A DNA stretch of 6,274 nt, taken from a virus. Taxonomy: Duplodnaviria > Heunggongvirae > Uroviricota > Caudoviricetes. Positions 1 to 6,274 of this stretch are shown here, one piece after another. The first letter of the stretch is position 1. The number at the start of each line of letters is the position of its first letter. The stretch spans positions 1 to 6,274 of the IMG/VR virus record IMGVR_UViG_2617270976_000005; one strand, given 5' to 3'. The translations under genes were made by a program, and so were the position numbers. The notes under the pieces are model-generated. The model did not search any database, was not told where the DNA came from, and was given only the letters and a program-made list of their open reading frames with translations.

Positions 1-1
1 T

Positions 2-397
2 GGTCTGAGAAATGATGCCGGAGAATTGATAGGTGTGGCGACAGCCGGTAGACCTGTTGCACGACATTTGGACGATGGATTAACGCTTGAAGTAAATCGC
101 ACATGTACCACAGGAGAACGCAACGCTAACAGCGCGCTTTATGGTGCTGTCTGGCGGGCAGCAAAGGCTATGGGTTATCAACGTTGTATTACGTACACCC
201 AGGCAGATGAATCAGGAGCATCTCTCCGCGCAGCTGGTTTTGTTCGTGTGAAAGAGCTTCCTCCAAGAAAAAGCTGGGCGGAATCAAGCGTCGCCCTGCG
301 GAGTAAACGCGATCCGGTCGGAAACGGTGGTGTTCCTCGTGTGCTCTGGGAAATCAGGAGAATGAGTACCACTGGCATTCGCATCAAAGGAGAGTGA
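2..397 (+). CDS. Hypothetical phage protein, 5'-partial (frame open to window edge; first in-window starts are TTG 26 / GTG 35)
   Basis: Open frame from position 2 to TGA 395-397, protein-like composition, stop 1 nt before the next ATG (399). No family recognised from memory. Confidence 0.5.
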   Translation, partial: GLRNDAGELIGVATAGRPVARHLDDGLTLEVNRTCTTGERNANSALYGAVWRAAKAMGYQRCITYTQADESGASLRAAGFVRVKELPPRKSWAESSVALRSKRDPVGNGGVPRVLWEIRRMSTTGIRIKGE

Positions 398-398
398 T

Positions 399-662
399 AT
401 GGCAACTTTGACAAAAAAAGAACAAGCATGGTTGAGCGAATTACAGGACGTTCTTGATCGCTGTCCATCACCGAAAAAAATTGGTTTTTACACCATTGGC
501 GATAAAAGCATTTACCTGTATGACCTGCGCCGCATGGATGAAATCATGGAGGCTCTTGATAATCGTTCGTCAATGGATTGGTGTGTTGCTGTCCATGATA
601 TGAATGCAGGGTTTGATGAAAAGATTTTGTTCCCCTCATCAGTTGAAAGCACTGCGGGTTAA
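399..662 (+). CDS. Hypothetical protein, 87 aa
   Basis: ATG 399 preceded by AAGGAG (387-392, 6-nt spacing); tightly coupled to the upstream ORF; provided ORF track. Function unknown. Confidence 0.55.
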   Translation: MATLTKKEQAWLSELQDVLDRCPSPKKIGFYTIGDKSIYLYDLRRMDEIMEALDNRSSMDWCVAVHDMNAGFDEKILFPSSVESTAG

Positions 663-672
663 GGAGTAACAC

Positions 673-978
673 ATGACCACTATTACCAAAGAACGTATTG
701 AATTGTTCATTAAAAACCCGCTTGAAAACGGGCTTACCCGTGGTGAACAAATGGAACTGGCACGGATTGCGCTGGCATCGCTGGCAGCAGAGCCAGCCGG
801 TAAATTGCATGAATACAAACCAGTGGGATATCAGCGTCTGGTCGATGAGTTAACCATGCTGGTAAAGCAGTTAACCTGGCAACTGAGGAAAGCGAAGCCA
901 GACTGCAAATTACCGGATAAGGCGATGAGTTATCTGGAGCGGAACGGACTGATAAGCGTGGAGGATATTTTACGATGA
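673..978 (+). CDS. Hypothetical protein, 101 aa
   Basis: ATG 673 preceded by AAGGAG (661-666) overlapping the upstream stop; ORF track. Function unknown. Confidence 0.6.
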   Translation: MTTITKERIELFIKNPLENGLTRGEQMELARIALASLAAEPAGKLHEYKPVGYQRLVDELTMLVKQLTWQLRKAKPDCKLPDKAMSYLERNGLISVEDILR

Positions 979-1058
979 CCTGGCCTGAAGCATTAACAAC
1001 GGTAGGAATTGCGATGGCGGTGGCGCTGGTGGTGTATTCGATTTGCCGCTGGGGATAA
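975..1058 (+). CDS. Putative 27-aa hydrophobic micro-protein (MTWPEALTTVGIAMAVALVVYSICRWG)
   Basis: ATG 975 overlaps the stop of the preceding ORF (ATGA), GGAGG 11 nt upstream, single predicted transmembrane-like segment. Below the ORF-track size cutoff; my own translation. Confidence 0.25.
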   Translation: MTWPEALTTVGIAMAVALVVYSICRWG

Positions 1059-1065
1059 AAACGGT

Positions 1066-1093
1066 TTGCGGGAAAAGGAGAGTTAAGTAGAAT
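1066..1093 (+). promoter_or_regulatory. Candidate sigma70 promoter for the hok transcript (TTGCGG, 16-nt spacer, TAGAAT)
   Basis: Hexamers read by eye at 1066-1071 and 1088-1093; would give a leader of about 170 nt before hok. Not computed. Confidence 0.2.
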
Positions 1094-1269
1094 TGCAGCG
1101 GGTGCTTGAGGCTATCTGTCTCAGGCATGAACACCAAAAGGCAGATAGAGAAAAGCCCCAGTTAACATTACGCGTCCGGCAAGACGCTTAACATTAATCT
1201 GAGGCCATATCTATGCTCTACACACGTAGGTTAGCCTCTTACGTGCCGAAAGGCAAGGAGAAGCAGGCT

Positions 1270-1425
1270 ATGAAGCAGCAAAAGGCGATGCTAATCGCCC
1301 TGATCGTCATCTGTTTAACCGTCATAGTGACGGCACTGGTAACGAGGAAAGACCTCTGCGAGGTACGAATCCGAACCGGCCAGACGGAGGTCGCTGTCTT
1401 CACAGCTTACGAACCTGAGGAGTAA
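1270..1425 (+). CDS. hokD: Hok/Gef-family type I toxin, 51 aa (membrane-depolarising peptide)
   Basis: Translation MKQQKAMLIALIVICLTVIVTALVTRKDLCEVRIRTGQTEVAVFTAYEPEE matches my recollection of HokD/RelF and is near-identical to Gef. AAGGAG 1255-1260, 9 nt before ATG 1270. An in-frame upstream ATG at 1213 would give a 70-aa form. Confidence 0.85.
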   Translation: MKQQKAMLIALIVICLTVIVTALVTRKDLCEVRIRTGQTEVAVFTAYEPEE

Positions 1426-1494
1426 GAGACCGGGCGGGGGAGAAATCCCTCGCCACCTCTGATGTGTCAGGCATCCTCAACGCACCCGCACTTA

Positions 1495-1521
1495 ACCCGC
1501 TTCGGCGGGTTTTTGTTTTTA
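1495..1521 (+). terminator. Rho-independent terminator downstream of hok
   Basis: ACCCGC / UUCG loop / GCGGGT hairpin followed by TTTTTGTTTTT. Confidence 0.7.
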
Positions 1522-1644
1522 TTTTCAACGCGTTTGAAGTTTTAGATGGTGCCGGAATAGAATCAAAAATACTTAAGTAGCGCGCAGGGAGAAGAGGGAT
1601 GGACCCCGAAGGGGAAGAGCTATTTATCTGGAAGGATTCTGAAG

Positions 1645-1818
1645 ATGAAAATCGAAGAATTACGTGAAATTTTTAGTGAAGATGGCCTCTATGCTGTGCG
1701 CGTTGAGAATGGGGGTATTACCTACACAGCGTTAATTCCTGATGATCATGTAGTGTTATCTGTTGAGGCATTCATTGAATACTTGGAAAGACTCGGTTTC
1801 AAGGTAGTTCGGGAATAA
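1645..1818 (+). CDS. Hypothetical small acidic protein, 57 aa (MKIEELREIFSEDGLYAVRVENGG...)
   Basis: ATG 1645 with AAGGA 8 nt upstream; protein-like composition; my own translation. Not in the ORF track (under cutoff). Confidence 0.4.
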   Translation: MKIEELREIFSEDGLYAVRVENGGITYTALIPDDHVVLSVEAFIEYLERLGFKVVRE

Positions 1819-1826
1819 GTTATAAT
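1797..1826 (+). promoter_or_regulatory. Candidate promoter with consensus -10 TATAAT (1821-1826) and weak -35 (TTTCAA/TTCAAG)
   Basis: Perfect TATAAT hexamer directly after the stop of the 57-aa ORF; the -35 is poor. Confidence 0.3.
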
Positions 1827-1877
1827 ACGTGAGCCAGCCTGAACAACTGGCAACCTGCAGCGCCATTGGAGATGACA

Positions 1878-2138
1878 ATGGCGCATAATTTCAAATTTCG
1901 CAATTCTGATTCTGCCTTTGCCAGCAGGCACGGGTGGCGTTCTCACGCATTCAAATATGACTGGTATCAGCACGATCCCTGTACTGAAGAACAGGCCGAA
2001 TGGCTGATTCATAACTACCGCAGACGTGGATATGAGTTTAGGAAAGCCCTCAGTGGCGCTTATTGTTCGCCAGCAGCGACTGAAATTAAGCCTGTCCGGA
2101 CGGCTGGCAATAAAAATTATTGCAGAGCCACCGGATAA
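1878..2138 (+). CDS. Uncertain ORF, 86 aa; 3' part overlaps rusA out of frame
   Basis: ATG 1878 with GGAG 6 nt upstream; the first ~50 codons look protein-like, the remainder is an alternate-frame read of the RusA-like region. May mark a mosaic junction. Confidence 0.25.
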   Translation: MAHNFKFRNSDSAFASRHGWRSHAFKYDWYQHDPCTEEQAEWLIHNYRRRGYEFRKALSGAYCSPAATEIKPVRTAGNKNYCRATG

Positions 2139-2307
2139 GCGTCGTCGTGACCTGGACAATATTCTGAAAGCACCACTGGATGCGCTGACGCACGCGGGGT
2201 TGTTAATGGACGATGAGCAGTTTGATGAAATCAATATTGTACGTGGCCAGCCAGTATCTGGTGGACGGCTGGAGATAAGAATTACAGAGGTGGGTGTGCA
2301 TGAATAA
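2026..2307 (+). CDS. rusA: RusA-family Holliday-junction resolvase homolog, apparently N-terminally truncated (93 aa versus about 120 aa)
   Basis: ...AEPPDKRRRDLDNILKAPLDALTHAGLLMDDEQ...GGRLEIRITEVG aligns with the catalytic acidic region of E. coli RusA (PDRRRRDLDN...DALTKAG...DD...GGRLELTITEMG) as I recall it. In-frame TGA at 2005-2007 blocks upstream extension, and the GTG/ATG start has no clear RBS. Confidence 0.6.
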   Translation: MDMSLGKPSVALIVRQQRLKLSLSGRLAIKIIAEPPDKRRRDLDNILKAPLDALTHAGLLMDDEQFDEINIVRGQPVSGGRLEIRITEVGVHE

Positions 2308-2989
2308 CCAGTATTTACAGTTTGTTCGTGAGCAACTCATGATTGCCACTGCAGATCTCAGTGGGTCGACAAAATGCCAGCTGGAAGCCTGGCAGGAAAA
2401 TGCCCTGTTCGATACAGGGCGTTACAGACGCAAAAAAATTCGTTACCGCGATGAGGTAACCGGAAAAATGATCACGCGGGATAATCCCCCGATCCAGGGT
2501 AAACAATCACTGGCGAAAGGCTCATCAATTGCGCTGGTCAGTCCTGTTGAGTTTGCAACATCATCGTGGCGGCGTGCCGTTCTGGAACTGGAAGAACATC
2601 AGAAGGCGTGGTTGTTGTGGTGTTATGGCGGAAACATTTGCTGGGAGCATCAGATCGCGATAACGCAGTGGGTGTGGAGTGAATTTAAAACTCAGTCCGG
2701 CTCCAGAAAAATTGCAGTGAAAACGCTGGAGCGTGTGAAGAAGTTGATCTGGCTGGCGGCACAGGATGTCAGAGGATGGGTTACCGGGTGTGAGGTCTAC
2801 CAGAGACAGGAGCTTGCCAGACTGTGTGGAGTTAAGCCTGATAACTGGAGCCATAATTATGCGAACTACTGGCGTGAGATGTGCGATATTTTTAAGCGCC
2901 TCGATAGAGAATCCTTGATTTGCTCCGTGAAAATAAGAGCGCAACAAAAAGCGACCTTTTCACGACGAGATATTGCAAAAGTCAATTAA
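2300..2989 (+). CDS. Putative late-gene antiterminator Q-like protein, 229 aa
   Basis: Call rests mainly on synteny: overlaps the rusA stop, AGAGG RBS, followed by a promoter-like element and strong hairpin terminator, then late cargo. No similarity to lambda Q itself; family assignment would need an HMM search. Confidence 0.55.
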   Translation: MNNQYLQFVREQLMIATADLSGSTKCQLEAWQENALFDTGRYRRKKIRYRDEVTGKMITRDNPPIQGKQSLAKGSSIALVSPVEFATSSWRRAVLELEEHQKAWLLWCYGGNICWEHQIAITQWVWSEFKTQSGSRKIAVKTLERVKKLIWLAAQDVRGWVTGCEVYQRQELARLCGVKPDNWSHNYANYWREMCDIFKRLDRESLICSVKIRAQQKATFSRRDIAKVN

Positions 2990-3010
2990 ATCGCGTATGT
3001 TTCGTATAAA
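2973..3010 (+). promoter_or_regulatory. Candidate late promoter (PR'-like): TTGCAA, 17-nt spacer, TATGTT; alternative -10 TATAAA at 3005-3010
   Basis: Hexamers read by eye, overlapping the 3' end of the Q-like gene, about 45 nt upstream of the hairpin terminator. Confidence 0.2.
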
Positions 3011-3050
3011 TCTGATATTTTGCCGATTTTGTACGTGATGGCAAAGTAAG

Positions 3051-3078
3051 AAAAAACCACCGCCAGGTGGTTTTTTTT
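3051..3078 (+). terminator. Rho-independent terminator (tR'-like), possibly bidirectional
   Basis: AAAAAA-CCACC-gcca-GGTGG-TTTTTTTT: short GC stem flanked by an A-tract and an 8-T tract. Confidence 0.7.
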
Positions 3079-3201
3079 ATGTCCGAAAATCGCGTCAGTA
3101 CAGTAAACGCGCTGGTGGTTGCGAATACGGGTCTTTCAGCTTGCTGGCTTTTTCGACAAGAGTTATTGGTATGTCACGTTAACCGGAAAAGGGAAAAAGA
3201 C

Positions 3202-3399
3202 ATGCTAAAACAGCAGGATATGACAGAAACCGCCAGAGTGGTGTTTAATGAATTAAGCGTTACCGACCCGGCGACAGTCAGGGAGATTGCGCAGAATACT
3301 TACCTTTCACGCGAACGCTGCCAGTTAATACTGACCCAGCTGGTTATGGCGGGTCTGGCAGACTATCAGTTCGGTTGTTACAGACGCCTTCAGTCCTGA
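3202..3399 (+). CDS. Small winged-helix-like DNA-binding protein, 65 aa (possibly PapI/FaeA-like)
   Basis: ATG 3202 with AAAGGGA upstream. The TVREIAQNTYLSRERCQLILTQLVMAGL segment has helix-turn-helix spacing that I can align by eye with PapI ([26 protein letters not shown]). The longer ORF-track version (3067) starts inside the terminator T-tract and was not used. Confidence 0.4.
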   Translation: MLKQQDMTETARVVFNELSVTDPATVREIAQNTYLSRERCQLILTQLVMAGLADYQFGCYRRLQS

Positions 3400-3412
3400 A
3401 GGCTTTTTTATT
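3386..3412 (+). terminator. Hairpin with U-tract overlapping the stop codon of the small wHTH ORF
   Basis: GCCTTCAG-tc-CTGAAGGC followed by TTTTTTATTT. Confidence 0.55.
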
Positions 3413-3550
3413 TGTGGTAAATGGGCGGCTGGTGGGTGTTAGGGGCACTCACCAGCCATCTGCTCATGCGTCCGGATCACAAGCAAACCTCAGGCCCATC
3501 TGCTTTGCGCAAAAGCAGAATGAGCCTATCAGAGACAGGCTTAATGATCC

Positions 3551-4600
3551 ATGTTTAACACTGTAAAAATATCCAGTTGTGAGTTGATCAACGCTGACTG
3601 CCTGGAATTTATCCGGTCGTTACCCGAAAATTCTGTTGACCTGATAGTCACGGACCCGCCGTACTTTAAAGTGAAGCCTGAGGGCTGGGATAACCAGTGG
3701 AAGGGCGACGATGATTACCTGAAGTGGCTGGACCAGTGTCTGGCGCAGTTCTGGCGGGTGCTGAAACCTGCCGGAAGTCTTTACCTGTTCTGTGGCCATC
3801 GCCTGGCGTCTGACATTGAAATCATGATGCGTGAACGCTTCAGTGTGCTGAACCATATTATCTGGGCGAAGCCGTCCGGACGCTGGAACGGGTGCAACAA
3901 GGAAAGCCTGAGGGCATATTTCCCCGCCACAGAGCGCATTCTGTTCGCGGAACATTATCAGGGGCCGTATCGCCCGAAAGATGCCGGGTATGAGGCGAAG
4001 GGCAGGGCACTGAAACAGCATGTGATGGCCCCGCTGATTTCTTACTTTCGTGATGCGCGCGCGGCCCTGGGGATAACGGCAAAACAGATTGCAGATGCCA
4101 CAGGAAAGAAAAACATGGTGTCGCACTGGTTCAGTGCCAGTCAGTGGCAGCTACCGAACGAAAGCGATTATCTGAAATTACAGTCGCTGTTTGCCCGGGT
4201 GGCAGAAGAGAAACATCAGCGCGGTGAACTGGAAAAGCCCCACCACCAGCTGGTGGATACGTATACGTCACTGAACCGGCAGTATGTGGAGCTGCAGAGT
4301 GAATATAAGCATCTGCGGCGGTATTTTGGTGTGACGGCGCAGGTGCCGTACACGGATGTGTGGACACATAAACCGGTGCAGTTCTATCCCGGGAAACATC
4401 CGTGCGAAAAACCGGCAGAAATGCTGCAGCAGATAATCAGCGCAAGCAGTCGTCCGGGTGACCTGGTTGCAGATTTTTTTATGGGCTCAGGTTCAACGGT
4501 AAAAGCGGCACTGGCGCTCGGGCGTCGTGCGATTGGCGTTGAACTGGAGACCGGACGTTTTGAGCAGACAGTCAGGGAAGTTCAGGATTTAATCGTTTGA
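3551..4600 (+). CDS. DNA methyltransferase, N6_N4_Mtase family (beta-class amino-MTase, likely N6-adenine), 349 aa; no adjacent endonuclease
   Basis: N-terminal catalytic motif IV LIVTDPPYF (nt 3653-3664) and C-terminal AdoMet motif I DFFMGSGST, in beta-class order, with a central HTH-like insert (ITAKQIADATGKKNMVSHWF). An in-frame TGA at 3545-3547 fixes the start at ATG 3551; the RBS is weak. Confidence 0.9.
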   Translation: MFNTVKISSCELINADCLEFIRSLPENSVDLIVTDPPYFKVKPEGWDNQWKGDDDYLKWLDQCLAQFWRVLKPAGSLYLFCGHRLASDIEIMMRERFSVLNHIIWAKPSGRWNGCNKESLRAYFPATERILFAEHYQGPYRPKDAGYEAKGRALKQHVMAPLISYFRDARAALGITAKQIADATGKKNMVSHWFSASQWQLPNESDYLKLQSLFARVAEEKHQRGELEKPHHQLVDTYTSLNRQYVELQSEYKHLRRYFGVTAQVPYTDVWTHKPVQFYPGKHPCEKPAEMLQQIISASSRPGDLVADFFMGSGSTVKAALALGRRAIGVELETGRFEQTVREVQDLIV

Positions 4601-4611
4601 AACGGATGAGA

Positions 4612-4641
4612 TTGCAGAATTAATTACGCACCATTATTATT
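4612..4641 (+). promoter_or_regulatory. Candidate promoter for the tRNA cluster (TTGCAG, 17-nt spacer, TATTAT)
   Basis: Hexamers at 4612-4617 and 4635-4640 place a start site about 2 nt before the first tRNA. Confidence 0.35.
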
Positions 4642-4649
4642 CTGCTTCC

Positions 4650-4725
4650 GGCCCTTTAGCTCAGTGGTGAGAGCGAGCGACTCATAATCGCCAGGTCGCT
4701 GGTTCAAATCCAGCAAGGGCCACCA
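4650..4725 (+). tRNA. tRNA with CAU anticodon, most likely tRNA-Ile2 (lysidine type, ileX/ileZ-like); tRNA-Met not excluded
   Basis: Manual cloverleaf: acceptor GGCCCTT/AAGGGCC, D-arm GCTC/GAGC, anticodon loop CUCAUAA, T-loop TTCAAAT, encoded CCA. Close to E. coli ileX as I recall it. Confidence 0.85.
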
Positions 4726-4732
4726 TCACAAA

Positions 4733-4812
4733 CCGCCATTAGCTTATCAGGAAGAGCAGACGACACGATAACAGGGTTGTTGGTGCGGGGGCGGGTCCCC
4801 GATGGCGGTCCA
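4733..4812 (+). pseudogene. Degenerate tRNA-like relic between the two tRNAs
   Basis: Perfect 7-bp acceptor stem CCGCCAT/ATGGCGG, then the same TA + GCT(T) start of the D-arm as the flanking tRNAs, a discriminator and CCA; but no foldable anticodon arm and a non-canonical 6-nt T-loop (GCGGGT). Confidence 0.3.
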
Positions 4813-4825
4813 TTATCGGTATTCA

Positions 4826-4902
4826 GCGTTGTTAGCTCAGCCGGACAGAGCAATTGCCTTCTAAGCAATCGGTCACTGGTTCGAATCCAGTACAGCGCGC
4901 CA
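4826..4902 (+). tRNA. tRNA-Arg, anticodon UCU (reads AGA, and AGG by wobble)
   Basis: Manual cloverleaf: acceptor GCGTTGT/ACAGCGC (one G-U pair), D-arm GCTC/GAGC, anticodon stem ATTGC/GCAAT with loop CUUCUAA, T-loop TTCGAAT, encoded CCA. Confidence 0.9.
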
Positions 4903-5009
4903 TATTCATTCTTCCAGATTCCTTTCGGCAGAGCCTTATACTGAAATATACCTGGCTCAGGATATTGTTGAAAATATTATATGTTTGTCAAAAATAAAAG
5001 TTCTGTTAA

Positions 5010-5366
5010 GTGTTGATTGAGTGTTTGTTATACGGTCTAATGGTTTTTTCAGCATTAAATATTTATCATTCATATGGTGTGGGTAGAGTGAATATTGATG
5101 AGGCGTCGGGGTGTTTCATCCTTAGGCAGCGTATTGATATAGTCAATGCAGAACGAGCAAAGGCCTTCAGCCGTTTGACAGTTTTGTTCTGTACTCCTGA
5201 TCGTCTTTCGGGAAGAGACGTTATTATTCTGAATAGTGATGCTATACAGAGGGTTTGCGATGAGTTCATGGTGGCTAATTCAGAATTATTTGCTCTTGTT
5301 CAGGAGTACAACAGAATAGCCAGGACCTGTGGTATGGATGAACTTCGGATTACTCATCTGGGGTAG
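5010..5366 (+). CDS. Hypothetical protein in an AT-rich cargo region, 108-118 aa depending on start (GTG 5010 or ATG 5040)
   Basis: ORF track. Composition is more protein-like than the overlapping antisense frame, but neither start has a convincing RBS. No family recognised. Confidence 0.3.
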   Translation: MLIECLLYGLMVFSALNIYHSYGVGRVNIDEASGCFILRQRIDIVNAERAKAFSRLTVLFCTPDRLSGRDVIILNSDAIQRVCDEFMVANSELFALVQEYNRIARTCGMDELRITHLG

Positions 5367-5446
5367 ATACATATCTGGATTATCACCGGTTACGGTAAAA
5401 AGTGATTGCTTACTGTTTTTGTGAATGGCATTGCAGCAGCCGGATA

Positions 5447-5533
5447 ATGTCAGTGCTGGCTGACGGTGTGCTGGTGGCGGGTGTGGTGGTTGCTGCTTTC
5501 CCGTTGCTGAAAAAGAAAACGCTAGACTGTTAG
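5447..5533 (+). CDS. Speculative 28-aa hydrophobic peptide (MSVLADGVLVAGVVVAAFPLLKKKTLDC)
   Basis: My own translation; single hydrophobic stretch with C-terminal KKK. Weak RBS; an in-frame GTG at 5402 would give 44 aa. May be a chance ORF in GT-rich sequence. Confidence 0.15.
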   Translation: MSVLADGVLVAGVVVAAFPLLKKKTLDC

Positions 5534-5757
5534 CCGGGTATCAGTTAGCGGGAGAAATTTTTAAATACTTCACAATTCAGGCGGTTGACTGTTGTCTGGT
5601 TTGCGGGGAGTTTGTTAAAAGAAACTGGCATGGTGAATCCCCCTGTGCGGAGGGGCAATCAGCGAGTAGGTATATGGGATAATCGCGGATTCAGGTGCTG
5701 GTACTGAATTCACCGGGAGGCACCCGGCACCATGCAATGGCACATAGCGCCACTCTC

Positions 5758-5788
5758 CAGCCCCTCTCCGGAGGGGCTGTTTATATTG
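5758..5788 (+). terminator. Strong rho-independent terminator
   Basis: Perfect 9-bp GC-rich stem CAGCCCCTC / tccg / GAGGGGCTG followed by TTTATATTGATTTT. Confidence 0.6.
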
Positions 5789-5810
5789 ATTTTGTCAGAT
5801 GTGAGTAAAC

Positions 5811-5844
5811 TCCTTATGGACTTTGTTGTTTTAGTCCATAAGGA
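5811..5844. repeat. Perfect 12-bp inverted repeat with 10-nt spacer (TCCTTATGGACT-n10-AGTCCATAAGGA)
   Basis: Read directly from the sequence; no U-tract follows on either strand, so more likely an operator or RNA structure than a terminator. Confidence 0.6.
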
Positions 5845-5896
5845 CATATTTGCAGAGTGCAACGGTTATTAAAGCATTCATTCAATACGTTATCTG

Positions 5897-6274
5897 GGTG
5901 ATGCTGCCAACTTACTGATTTAGTGTATGATGGTGTTTTTGAGGTGCTCCAGTGGCTTCTGTTTCTATCAGCTGTCCCTCCTGTTCAGCTACTGACGGGG
6001 TGGTGCGTAACGGCAAAAGCACCGCCGGACATCAGCGCTATCTCTGCTCTCACTGCCGTAAAACATGGCAACTGCAGTTCACTTACACCGCTTCTCAACC
6101 CGGTACGCACCAGAAAATCATTGATATGGCCATGAATGGCGTTGGATGCCGGGCAACAGCCCGCATTATGGGCGTTGGCCTCAACACGATTTTACGTCAC
6201 TTAAAAAACTCAGGCCGCAGTCGGTAACCTCGCGCATACAGCCGGGCAGTGACGTCATCGTCTGCGCGGAAATG
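5897..6274 (+). mobile_element. IS1 insertion sequence, left end and first 378 bp (continues past the window)
   Basis: Left terminal inverted repeat GGTGATGCTGCCAACTTACTGAT at 5897-5919, and insA at the expected offset (IS1 nt 56). Confidence 0.95.
5952..6227 (+). CDS. insA: IS1 InsA (transposition repressor / N-terminal part of the InsAB' transposase), 91 aa
   Basis: Translation [43 protein letters not shown]...LKNSGRSR matches IS1 InsA as I recall it. Confidence 0.95.

Follow-up and report, generated by a model that had tools for sequence, protein, structure and literature searches.

A small winged-helix gene and a structured leader RNA accompany an M.EcoGII-type adenine methyltransferase gene in enterobacterial prophages: a candidate guarded DNA-modification module

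The DNA analysed here (the window: positions 1 to 6,274 of IMG/VR virus record IMGVR_UViG_2617270976_000005, 6,274 nucleotides [nt] in all) covers the junction between the early and late regions of an Escherichia coli-type lambdoid prophage. Downstream of the antiterminator gene Q, its plus strand carries a winged-helix gene of 65 amino acids (aa; 3202–3399), a predicted leader RNA of ~140 nt (3414–3550) and a 349 aa DNA methyltransferase gene (3551–4600). The enzyme itself is already known; what is new is best described as a conserved three-part architecture, kin to the guarded DNA-modification operons of other phages. We favour, with a probability of roughly 40%, the reading that lambdoid prophages carry here a self-contained, guarded module for DNA modification that would follow a logic like that of com-mom in phage Mu, with the winged-helix protein gating the enzyme via the leader. 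A first-pass annotation, made from the letters of the window and a list of its open reading frames (ORFs), had singled out the two genes as a pair; both ORFs, and their position downstream of Q, were confirmed by ORF translation and a Pfam match to Q.

By its sequence, the methyltransferase is an orphan beta-class N6-adenine methyltransferase of the M.EcoGII family. It matches PF01555 (N6_N4_Mtase, E = 2.2e-44) over residues 29–340, with VTDPPYF at residues 33–39 and FFMGSGST near residue 310. The motif order (catalytic DPPY, target-recognition domain, S-adenosylmethionine [SAM] motif FxGxG) is that of the beta class, and relatives in the PDB (RsrI, CcrM, MboIIA and others) align as N- and C-terminal blocks flanking a central insert. 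Comparison with the M.EcoGII sequence of the SUPREM supplement gives 332 of 350 identical positions (~95%), a figure that may be slightly low because the reference was machine-read and some mismatches may be reading errors. The high identity is full-length and includes the target-recognition domain, which in M.EcoGII consists of four helices (residues 160–237); the earlier suggestion that a helix-turn-helix (HTH)-like insert is the target-recognition domain matches this published description. No nuclease-like family match was found in family searches of the other window ORFs, and the first-pass view of an orphan DPPY enzyme therefore stands.

The properties of this enzyme family have been described by Murray et al. 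(2018, PMC5778455), who found M.EcoGII (349 aa) and M.EcoGI to be prophage-encoded in E. coli O104:H4 and completely non-specific for adenine; the two paralogues are identical at 333 of 349 residues. Neither is expressed in the lysogen, both are harmful when expressed, and DNA with 80% N6-methyladenine transforms 4–5 orders of magnitude worse (PMC5778455). Murray et al. presume that induction switches these genes on to defeat restriction (PMC5778455), so that pre-methylation of progeny DNA, also raised in the first pass, is a view already published for M.EcoGII. The same authors name phage 1720a-02 as the carrier of a very similar gene (PMC5778455), and 1720a-02 is the best phage match of the window region (95.3% DNA identity). 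A 2025 review puts Mom and M.EcoGII together as silent in lysogens and toxic. The window enzyme shares its length, motif order and prophage location with M.EcoGII. From its identity to M.EcoGII we infer that it methylates adenine in any context, is silent in the lysogen and is toxic; M.EcoGI, which has diverged from M.EcoGII to an equal degree, is non-specific as well. We found no substantive difference from M.EcoGII in the enzyme; the small upstream gene and the leader were not considered in the published work.

The small winged-helix protein nearly always accompanies an M.EcoGII-type enzyme across enterobacterial prophages. When the small protein was used as the query, with one genome per species, an M.EcoGII-type gene lay directly 3′ of its homologue in 28 of 29 loci. 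The exception (L022, Enterobacteriaceae; 3980–4302) is a decayed remnant: the enzyme has been deleted, while the leader is still intact (100.8 bits) and the small ORF has lost its N-terminal part. The best 120 methyltransferase homologues are all at least 75% identical, and loci of Proteus-type phages were used instead for diverged enzymes. With a diverged Proteus enzyme (57% identical) as the query, a small-ORF homologue was found upstream on the same strand in 79 of 80 Proteus/Providencia-type phage contigs; in Proteus penneri, a gene for a secreted protein sits between the pair. The pair is also intact where other genes separate it from Q: the intervening gene encodes a GIY-YIG nuclease in phiP27 and a lipoprotein in a Shiga toxin 2c (Stx2c) phage. 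Compared with the window, the enzyme of this Stx2c phage is 87.5% identical and its small protein just 50%. Adjacency is kept at small-protein identities of 40–55% and enzyme identities of 57–62%, with varied upstream neighbours and a replaced spacer.

The pair in the window is one of thousands of copies. A 1.66-kb region was matched in 2549 of 5426 complete E. coli genomes (2007 with at least 80% of the query covered), and the module region is also found in phiP27 and many Stx2a/2c/2d phages. The first-pass statement that some Shiga-toxin phages carry a methyltransferase at this position is borne out by these phages and by 1720a-02.

The small ORF is a real gene under purifying selection: its ratio of nonsynonymous to synonymous substitution (Nei-Gojobori, 25 loci) is 0.17–0.23 in its own frame versus 1.1–1.7 in the two other frames. 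The product matches phrog_331 (E = 4.7e-37), a family of unknown function, and is annotated in databases as 'TrmB family' or hypothetical. Its homologues number ~330 across Enterobacterales, to which all of those with a named source belong, and the family is narrow (60 cluster representatives at E≤0.001 among 1.84 billion proteins). AlphaFold2 models a canonical winged helix with an average pLDDT (predicted local distance difference test) of 92.3, in which helix 1 spans residues 9–16, helix 2 residues 26–33, helix 3 residues 37–49 and the beta-hairpin wing residues 53–62; this upholds the earlier description of a winged-helix-like protein. The conserved parts are an invariant N-terminal MLKQxDMT peptide and helix 3 (C-Q-L-I-L-T-Q-L, with an invariant LTQ motif); helices 1 and 2 and the wing are exchangeable, with at least three types. 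Members of the family are mildly acidic, with a median isoelectric point (pI) of 5.3 and a net charge of -1.

Family searches place this protein in the winged-helix superfamily and no further. Foldseek comparison with the PDB and with viral models returned generic winged-helix matches (E ~1e-3), including MarR/OhrR, IclR, ArsR, the winged-helix domains of O-methyltransferases, the mRNA-binding domain of SelB, MotA and Z-alpha-like domains, and the family profile gave only marginal winged-helix matches among PDB sequences. In Pfam searches of 24 family members, TrmB (15/24), DprA_WH (14/24) and MarR_2 (12/24) were all matched below their gathering scores. The window protein scores 19.7 bits against TrmB (cut-off 25.6) and, at 65 aa, is without the TrmB architecture with its C-terminal sensor domain. 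As the score falls under the cut-off, the label 'TrmB family' is an over-annotation. The first pass had likened the protein to PapI/FaeA and proposed comparison with FaeA/PapI and MarR profiles; no FaeA (PF04703) match was obtained at E≤0.1 in the 24 members and PapI lies outside the 50 best Foldseek PDB matches; other winged-helix families, MarR_2 among them, were matched weakly. An alternative 110 aa reading of the small ORF from a GTG at 3067 was rejected: it crosses a terminator (T1, below) and homologues are conserved only from MLKQQDMT, and the start is therefore taken to be the ATG at 3202. Two long matches from the representative search (P0165 and P0173), considered as Rosetta-stone fusions, share only short repeated stretches with the query (31–54 and 24–43) and were taken for repeat matches.

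The third part of the architecture is the leader, which the first pass did not mention, nor did it describe the two terminators and the box treated below. The spacer from the small gene to the methyltransferase is 151 nt in the window and 142–154 nt in 29 of the 32 loci measured (the 29 small-protein loci less two, plus the window and four phage or E. coli loci). Its mean nucleotide identity is 76%, versus 70% for the small ORF and 72% for the enzyme, and synonymous sites are near saturation in both genes. RNAalifold predicts a long imperfect hairpin (P1, 3421–3467), then a helix (P2, GAUCA/UGAUC; 3474–3479 with 3545–3550) around P3 (3493–3499 with 3520–3526) and P4 (3500–3518). P2 abuts the AUG at 3551, ending one base 5′ of it, and is adjoined by an AAG/CUU helix (3481–3483 with 3540–3542) that itself has covariation support. 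Over 26 sequences and 31 pairs, 97.1% of cells are paired, versus 25–45% with slid partners, and the six compensatory pairs in this alignment are a count reached in 0 of 500 shuffles. A 40-sequence alignment, which leans towards structure since it was fitted to a covariance model, is 94.5% paired and shows compensatory change in 8 pairs and 45 cells. At three positions G-U pairs are the most frequent, and pairing is better on the plus strand (97%) than on the reverse (~88%, our own estimate from the 26-sequence counts, with ~9% of pairs lost), which argues for a sense-strand RNA and not a DNA palindrome. The window copy has a folding z-score of -5.7.

Most lineages carry this leader, but not all of them. 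Its covariance model matches 33 of 80 Morganellaceae-type phage loci, a further Morganellaceae-type group has a shortened variant with P1 alone, and in Proteus-type modules the leader is replaced by a terminator followed by a canonical Shine-Dalgarno (SD) sequence in a small hairpin. Matches were also found in 20 plasmid records. A 45 aa ORF within the spacer (3421–3558, overlapping the methyltransferase start) was considered as a coding alternative and rejected: in most loci it is a 7-codon ORF ending in TAG, indels break its frame, and its substitutions are compensatory in the hairpin and not synonymous.

The small gene is flanked on both sides by intrinsic terminators. T1 (3051–3080, plus strand), 5′ of the small gene, is strong and tR′-like, with the stem ACCGCCAGGTGGT followed by a T-run, and almost every related locus has a terminator in the corresponding position, irrespective of its upstream gene. 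T2 (3386–3411, plus strand), a terminator or hairpin formed by GCCTTCAGTCCTGAAGGC then TTTTTTAT, holds the stop codon of the small ORF in its loop. By eye, and with no formal count, a hairpin at the T2 place is kept with differing stem sequences in most Enterobacteriaceae loci; it is absent from three Providencia genome loci, and a strong terminator occupies this place in Proteus-type modules. Between T1 and the small ORF, ~25–60 nt 5′ of the latter, lies a conserved box (CTTGCTG-N12-AGAGTTA..GTATGTCA; 3140–3176, plus strand), a candidate promoter or operator. Its columns (CTTGCTG-N12-AGAGTTA..GTnTG) are invariant in 23 loci of many genera, from Escherichia to phages of Providencia and Proteus, and the box was found in 52 of 76 Morganellaceae phage loci, where AT-rich versions run on into an inverted repeat (GGTCAGAGTTA...TAACTGACC). 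A sigma-70 promoter scan of the plus strand from 3080 to 3550, and of the corresponding stretch in a Kluyvera locus (L007), gave nothing, the box being under the consensus threshold. Rfam searches identified no family over the leader or the box (E≤1 for the whole window; E≤10 for 3080–3570).

The region 5′ of T1 (2974–3080, plus strand) holds a possible PR′ promoter (TTGCAA-17 nt-TATGTT, then TATAAA), from which a short transcript of ~70 nt would end at T1. Rfam matches over this region are weak and only isrK- or Phe-leader-like. In position it matches StxS of 933W-type phages; its sequence differs.

The start of the enzyme ORF is without a canonical SD sequence. Median pairing energies with the core anti-SD are -2.4 kcal/mol for the enzyme start versus -4.3 for the small ORF. 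The value for the enzyme becomes -5.7 when the GGAUCA segment of the 16S rRNA tail is counted, and the partner sequence of that segment is the one that P2 would sequester. A GATC (in TGATC, 3545–3549) directly 5′ of the methyltransferase start codon is invariant in 26 of 26 aligned loci; in the window, a second GATC lies in the pairing arm (3475–3478). The TGATC at the enzyme start is complementary to GGAUCA of the 16S rRNA 3′ tail and is also a Dam site.

A promiscuous toxic enzyme, two terminators, a structured leader, a weak core SD and a co-inherited small protein are the features on which we take the module to be com-mom-like. In the lysogen, transcripts would end at T1 or T2 and no toxic enzyme would be made. 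After induction, Q-modified RNA polymerase would pass both terminators, the leader would hold methyltransferase translation low or conditional, and the small protein would set the amount of enzyme by acting on the leader RNA, with the P1 hairpin as its most likely target. The enzyme would then methylate the adenines of replicating phage DNA without sequence preference, so that progeny might evade the Type I, II and III restriction systems of the next host without crippling over-methylation. In Mu, the small protein Com, encoded just 5′ of mom, binds mom mRNA, undoing a structure that bars translation of this toxic, late, broad-spectrum modification gene (PMC3299994). Mu-like prophages offer a still closer parallel: in FluMu, a com-like gene lies 5′ of the gene for the non-specific adenine methyltransferase Hin1523 (Drozdz et al. 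2012, PMC3299994), and more generally in Haemophilus and Neisseria a com-like gene precedes such a methyltransferase (Hin1523/Hia5) instead of mom (PMC3299994), enzymes that we liken to that of the window by description.

The resemblance to com-mom lies in a small gene directly 5′ of a toxic late DNA-modification gene, in the conservation of the pair (28/29 and 79/80 loci) and in broad protection from restriction. Control of com-mom involves RNA structure at the modification gene's start (PMC3299994); here, the P2 helix ends at position -1. Com, however, is a Cys4 zinc finger, whereas the window protein is a winged helix with two Cys, which makes the window module an analogue of com-mom and not a member. 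The host phage also differs, being lambdoid and Q-dependent here but Mu-like and C-dependent there, and it is by analogy that the window protein would bind the mRNA and activate translation.

Two further observations favour a guarded module: P1 persists in the shortened leader variant, and the inter-gene terminator recurs in the leaderless Proteus-type module. Several points weigh against it. The small protein is slightly acidic, which is atypical of a nucleic-acid binder, and changes in the P1 stem are not matched by co-varying changes in the helix 3 sequence. The Proteus-type modules keep the protein without a leader and with a canonical SD, so its role cannot rest on the leader everywhere. 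Predicted accessibility from -12 to +3 is 0.37 for the enzyme start, barely lower than the 0.41 of the small ORF start, and with values so nearly equal, sequestration of the start site is not demonstrated. Finally, M.EcoGII is active as a cloned methyltransferase gene, presumably with the small protein absent. The acidity of the protein, a start site of not clearly reduced accessibility and the presence of the protein in leaderless modules are the reasons for keeping our confidence at the level given above.

In a possible but rather unlikely alternative, the small protein would serve the methyltransferase as a protein partner, be it a subunit, a chaperone, an inhibitor or a targeting factor, and would modulate its activity or its choice of substrate, for example phage versus host DNA, or RNA. 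A precedent comes from another Stx-phage methyltransferase, M.EcoPA8orf6770P, which is weak alone and acts as an rRNA methyltransferase in complex with PNB-2, a winged-helix protein encoded directly 5′ of it that co-purifies 1:1 with the enzyme and switches its target to 16S rRNA (Gong, Chakraborty and Koudelka 2023, PMC10810198). As in the window, the small neighbour is a predicted winged helix and a terminator precedes the pair, the genes of which are co-transcribed in that phage (PMC10810198), but M.EcoPA8orf6770P is an MT-A70 enzyme with DPPW at a different phage gene position (gp5 in that paper), whereas the window enzyme has DPPY and belongs to PF01555; we liken PNB-2 to the window protein by fold and gene position. 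M.EcoGII, moreover, methylates RNA as well in vitro (PMC5778455). A partner would also account for the pairing kept in Proteus-type modules that have no leader; the acidic pI suits protein binding, and an interface could be formed by the hydrophobic side of helix 3 together with the conserved N-terminal peptide. The winged-helix dimerisation domains of SAM-dependent O-methyltransferases are among the best Foldseek PDB matches, but these matches are generic and MarR-type regulators score equally. Against a partner stands the full, non-specific activity of M.EcoGII from the cloned gene (PMC5778455), with the same presumption about the small protein. In the Stx2c phage, too, the small-protein type is swapped (50% identity) while the enzyme stays at 87%, so that there is no obvious co-divergence. 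The wider claim that the winged-helix protein and the leader are an unrecognised riboregulatory pair (a winged-helix counterpart of Com and a new class of cis-regulatory RNA), or else that the protein is a missing subunit changing the targets of M.EcoGII in vivo, is one that we put forward tentatively and with some doubt.

C proteins of restriction-modification systems are small HTH proteins encoded 5′ of a potentially lethal enzyme, the expression of which they time; they are of the Xre type, use palindromic C-boxes and control endonucleases. A C-protein-like role, in which the small protein would be a DNA-binding transcription regulator that binds the upstream box and/or the inverted repeat in the spacer, is in our judgement unlikely. 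Under such a scheme, the protein may be expressed alone in the lysogen, between T1 and T2, keeping the methyltransferase off or timing it. The fold is a canonical winged helix with MarR, IclR and ArsR among the best structural matches, a conserved box lies 5′ of the small gene, the terminators on both sides resemble those of an autonomous moron unit, and at the DNA level P1 is an inverted repeat. The box, however, is unlike a sigma-70 promoter or a palindromic operator, and none of the C-protein features (Xre-type HTH, palindromic C-boxes, control of an endonuclease) is seen in the window module. The G-U pairs and the better pairing of the plus strand favour RNA, the P1 stem changes by compensatory substitution while helix 3 stays constant, and the protein is acidic.

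It is improbable that the two genes have no functional link. Lambdoid late-region inserts do move as blocks, and the spacer could be conserved for another reason, such as an RNase III site of the late transcript, since the imperfect ~18-bp P1 hairpin would resemble phage RNase III sites. Adjacency nevertheless outlasts the divergence of both proteins as well as new neighbours and replacement of the spacer, and the sole locus without the enzyme is a decayed remnant. To the methylation-dependent (Dam/GATC-type) heritable switch of a PapI-like regulator and an adenine methyltransferase, as raised in the first pass, we assign almost no weight: PapI and the window protein are both small winged-helix proteins and a GATC is invariant just 5′ of the start codon, but pairing in P2 and complementarity with the 3′ tail of 16S rRNA account for that GATC, the 24 members give no FaeA/PapI family signal, PapI is not among the top structural matches, the setting of PapI/FaeA (control of fimbrial operons, Lrp sites, pairs of Dam GATC sites) differs from the present one, a lambdoid late region with Q on one side and tRNA genes on the other, and an enzyme family that has no recognition motif and is reported to be silent in lysogens (PMC5778455) cannot write a site-specific heritable mark.

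The other features of the window, all on the plus strand unless stated otherwise, are those of a lambdoid late region and its flank. At the left end, the ORF at 26–397 is a Mom-like gene (NCBIfam XF1762 family, E = 6.9e-43; phrog_1384, 'Mom-like DNA modification protein', E = 4e-27), through which the prophage may have, next to the M.EcoGII-type enzyme, another means of modifying DNA. A hok/sok type I toxin-antitoxin locus follows (1100–1425; Rfam sok, 117 bits), with a Hok-like peptide within the ORF at 1213–1425; hokD occupies the equivalent position in E. coli CE10. A RusA gene lies between hok/sok and Q (2294–2989; PF06323 Phage_antiter_Q, E = 4.8e-82), the CE10 homologue of which is annotated as antitermination protein Q.

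As in Stx phages, tRNA genes follow the module. The two in the window (ARAGORN and Rfam tRNA) have a CAT anticodon (4650–4725; ileZ in relatives) and an Arg-TCT anticodon (4826–4902; argO) and are separated by a gap of 100 nt, as annotated in phiP27; E. coli CE10 has three tRNA genes. Next is an AT-rich ORF of 118 aa (5010–5366; GC ~0.37–0.44; phrog_2873, unknown function, E = 1.7e-70) that fills the insert ('moron') slot after the tRNA genes, which stx occupies in Shiga-toxin phages. An STnc100-like RNA (5599–5788; full-length Rfam match, 132 bits, E = 6.8e-30) lies 3′ of this ORF, in the region from which convergent prophage small RNAs have been described (Tree et al.). Near the right end (5923–6274), an InsA-like ORF from 5952 resembles IS1 and is taken for the end of such an element, an assignment made by recognition.

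In the literature searched, one paper lists both genes side by side without comment, and no work on the small protein, leader or box was found. Within that literature, the first-pass impression that the pairing is undescribed stands for the M.EcoGII-type family, although close functional analogues exist in com-mom, FluMu and PNB-2. Two corrections follow from this work: the PapI analogy fails, and the label 'TrmB family transcriptional regulator' overstates what is known of the small protein. M.EcoGII is widely used as a laboratory tool (MadID, RNA labelling and protection assays), while its native biology is almost unstudied; the module offers a testable handle on how a phage safely deploys a genome-wide DNA modification that is harmful to itself. 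If the guarded-module interpretation is true, the com-mom principle would extend from Mu-like to lambdoid phages, including the many Shiga-toxin phages that carry the module directly 5′ of stx. A new candidate cis-regulatory RNA motif would be added, and the pair would gate a methyltransferase in about four in ten complete E. coli genomes and across Enterobacterales.

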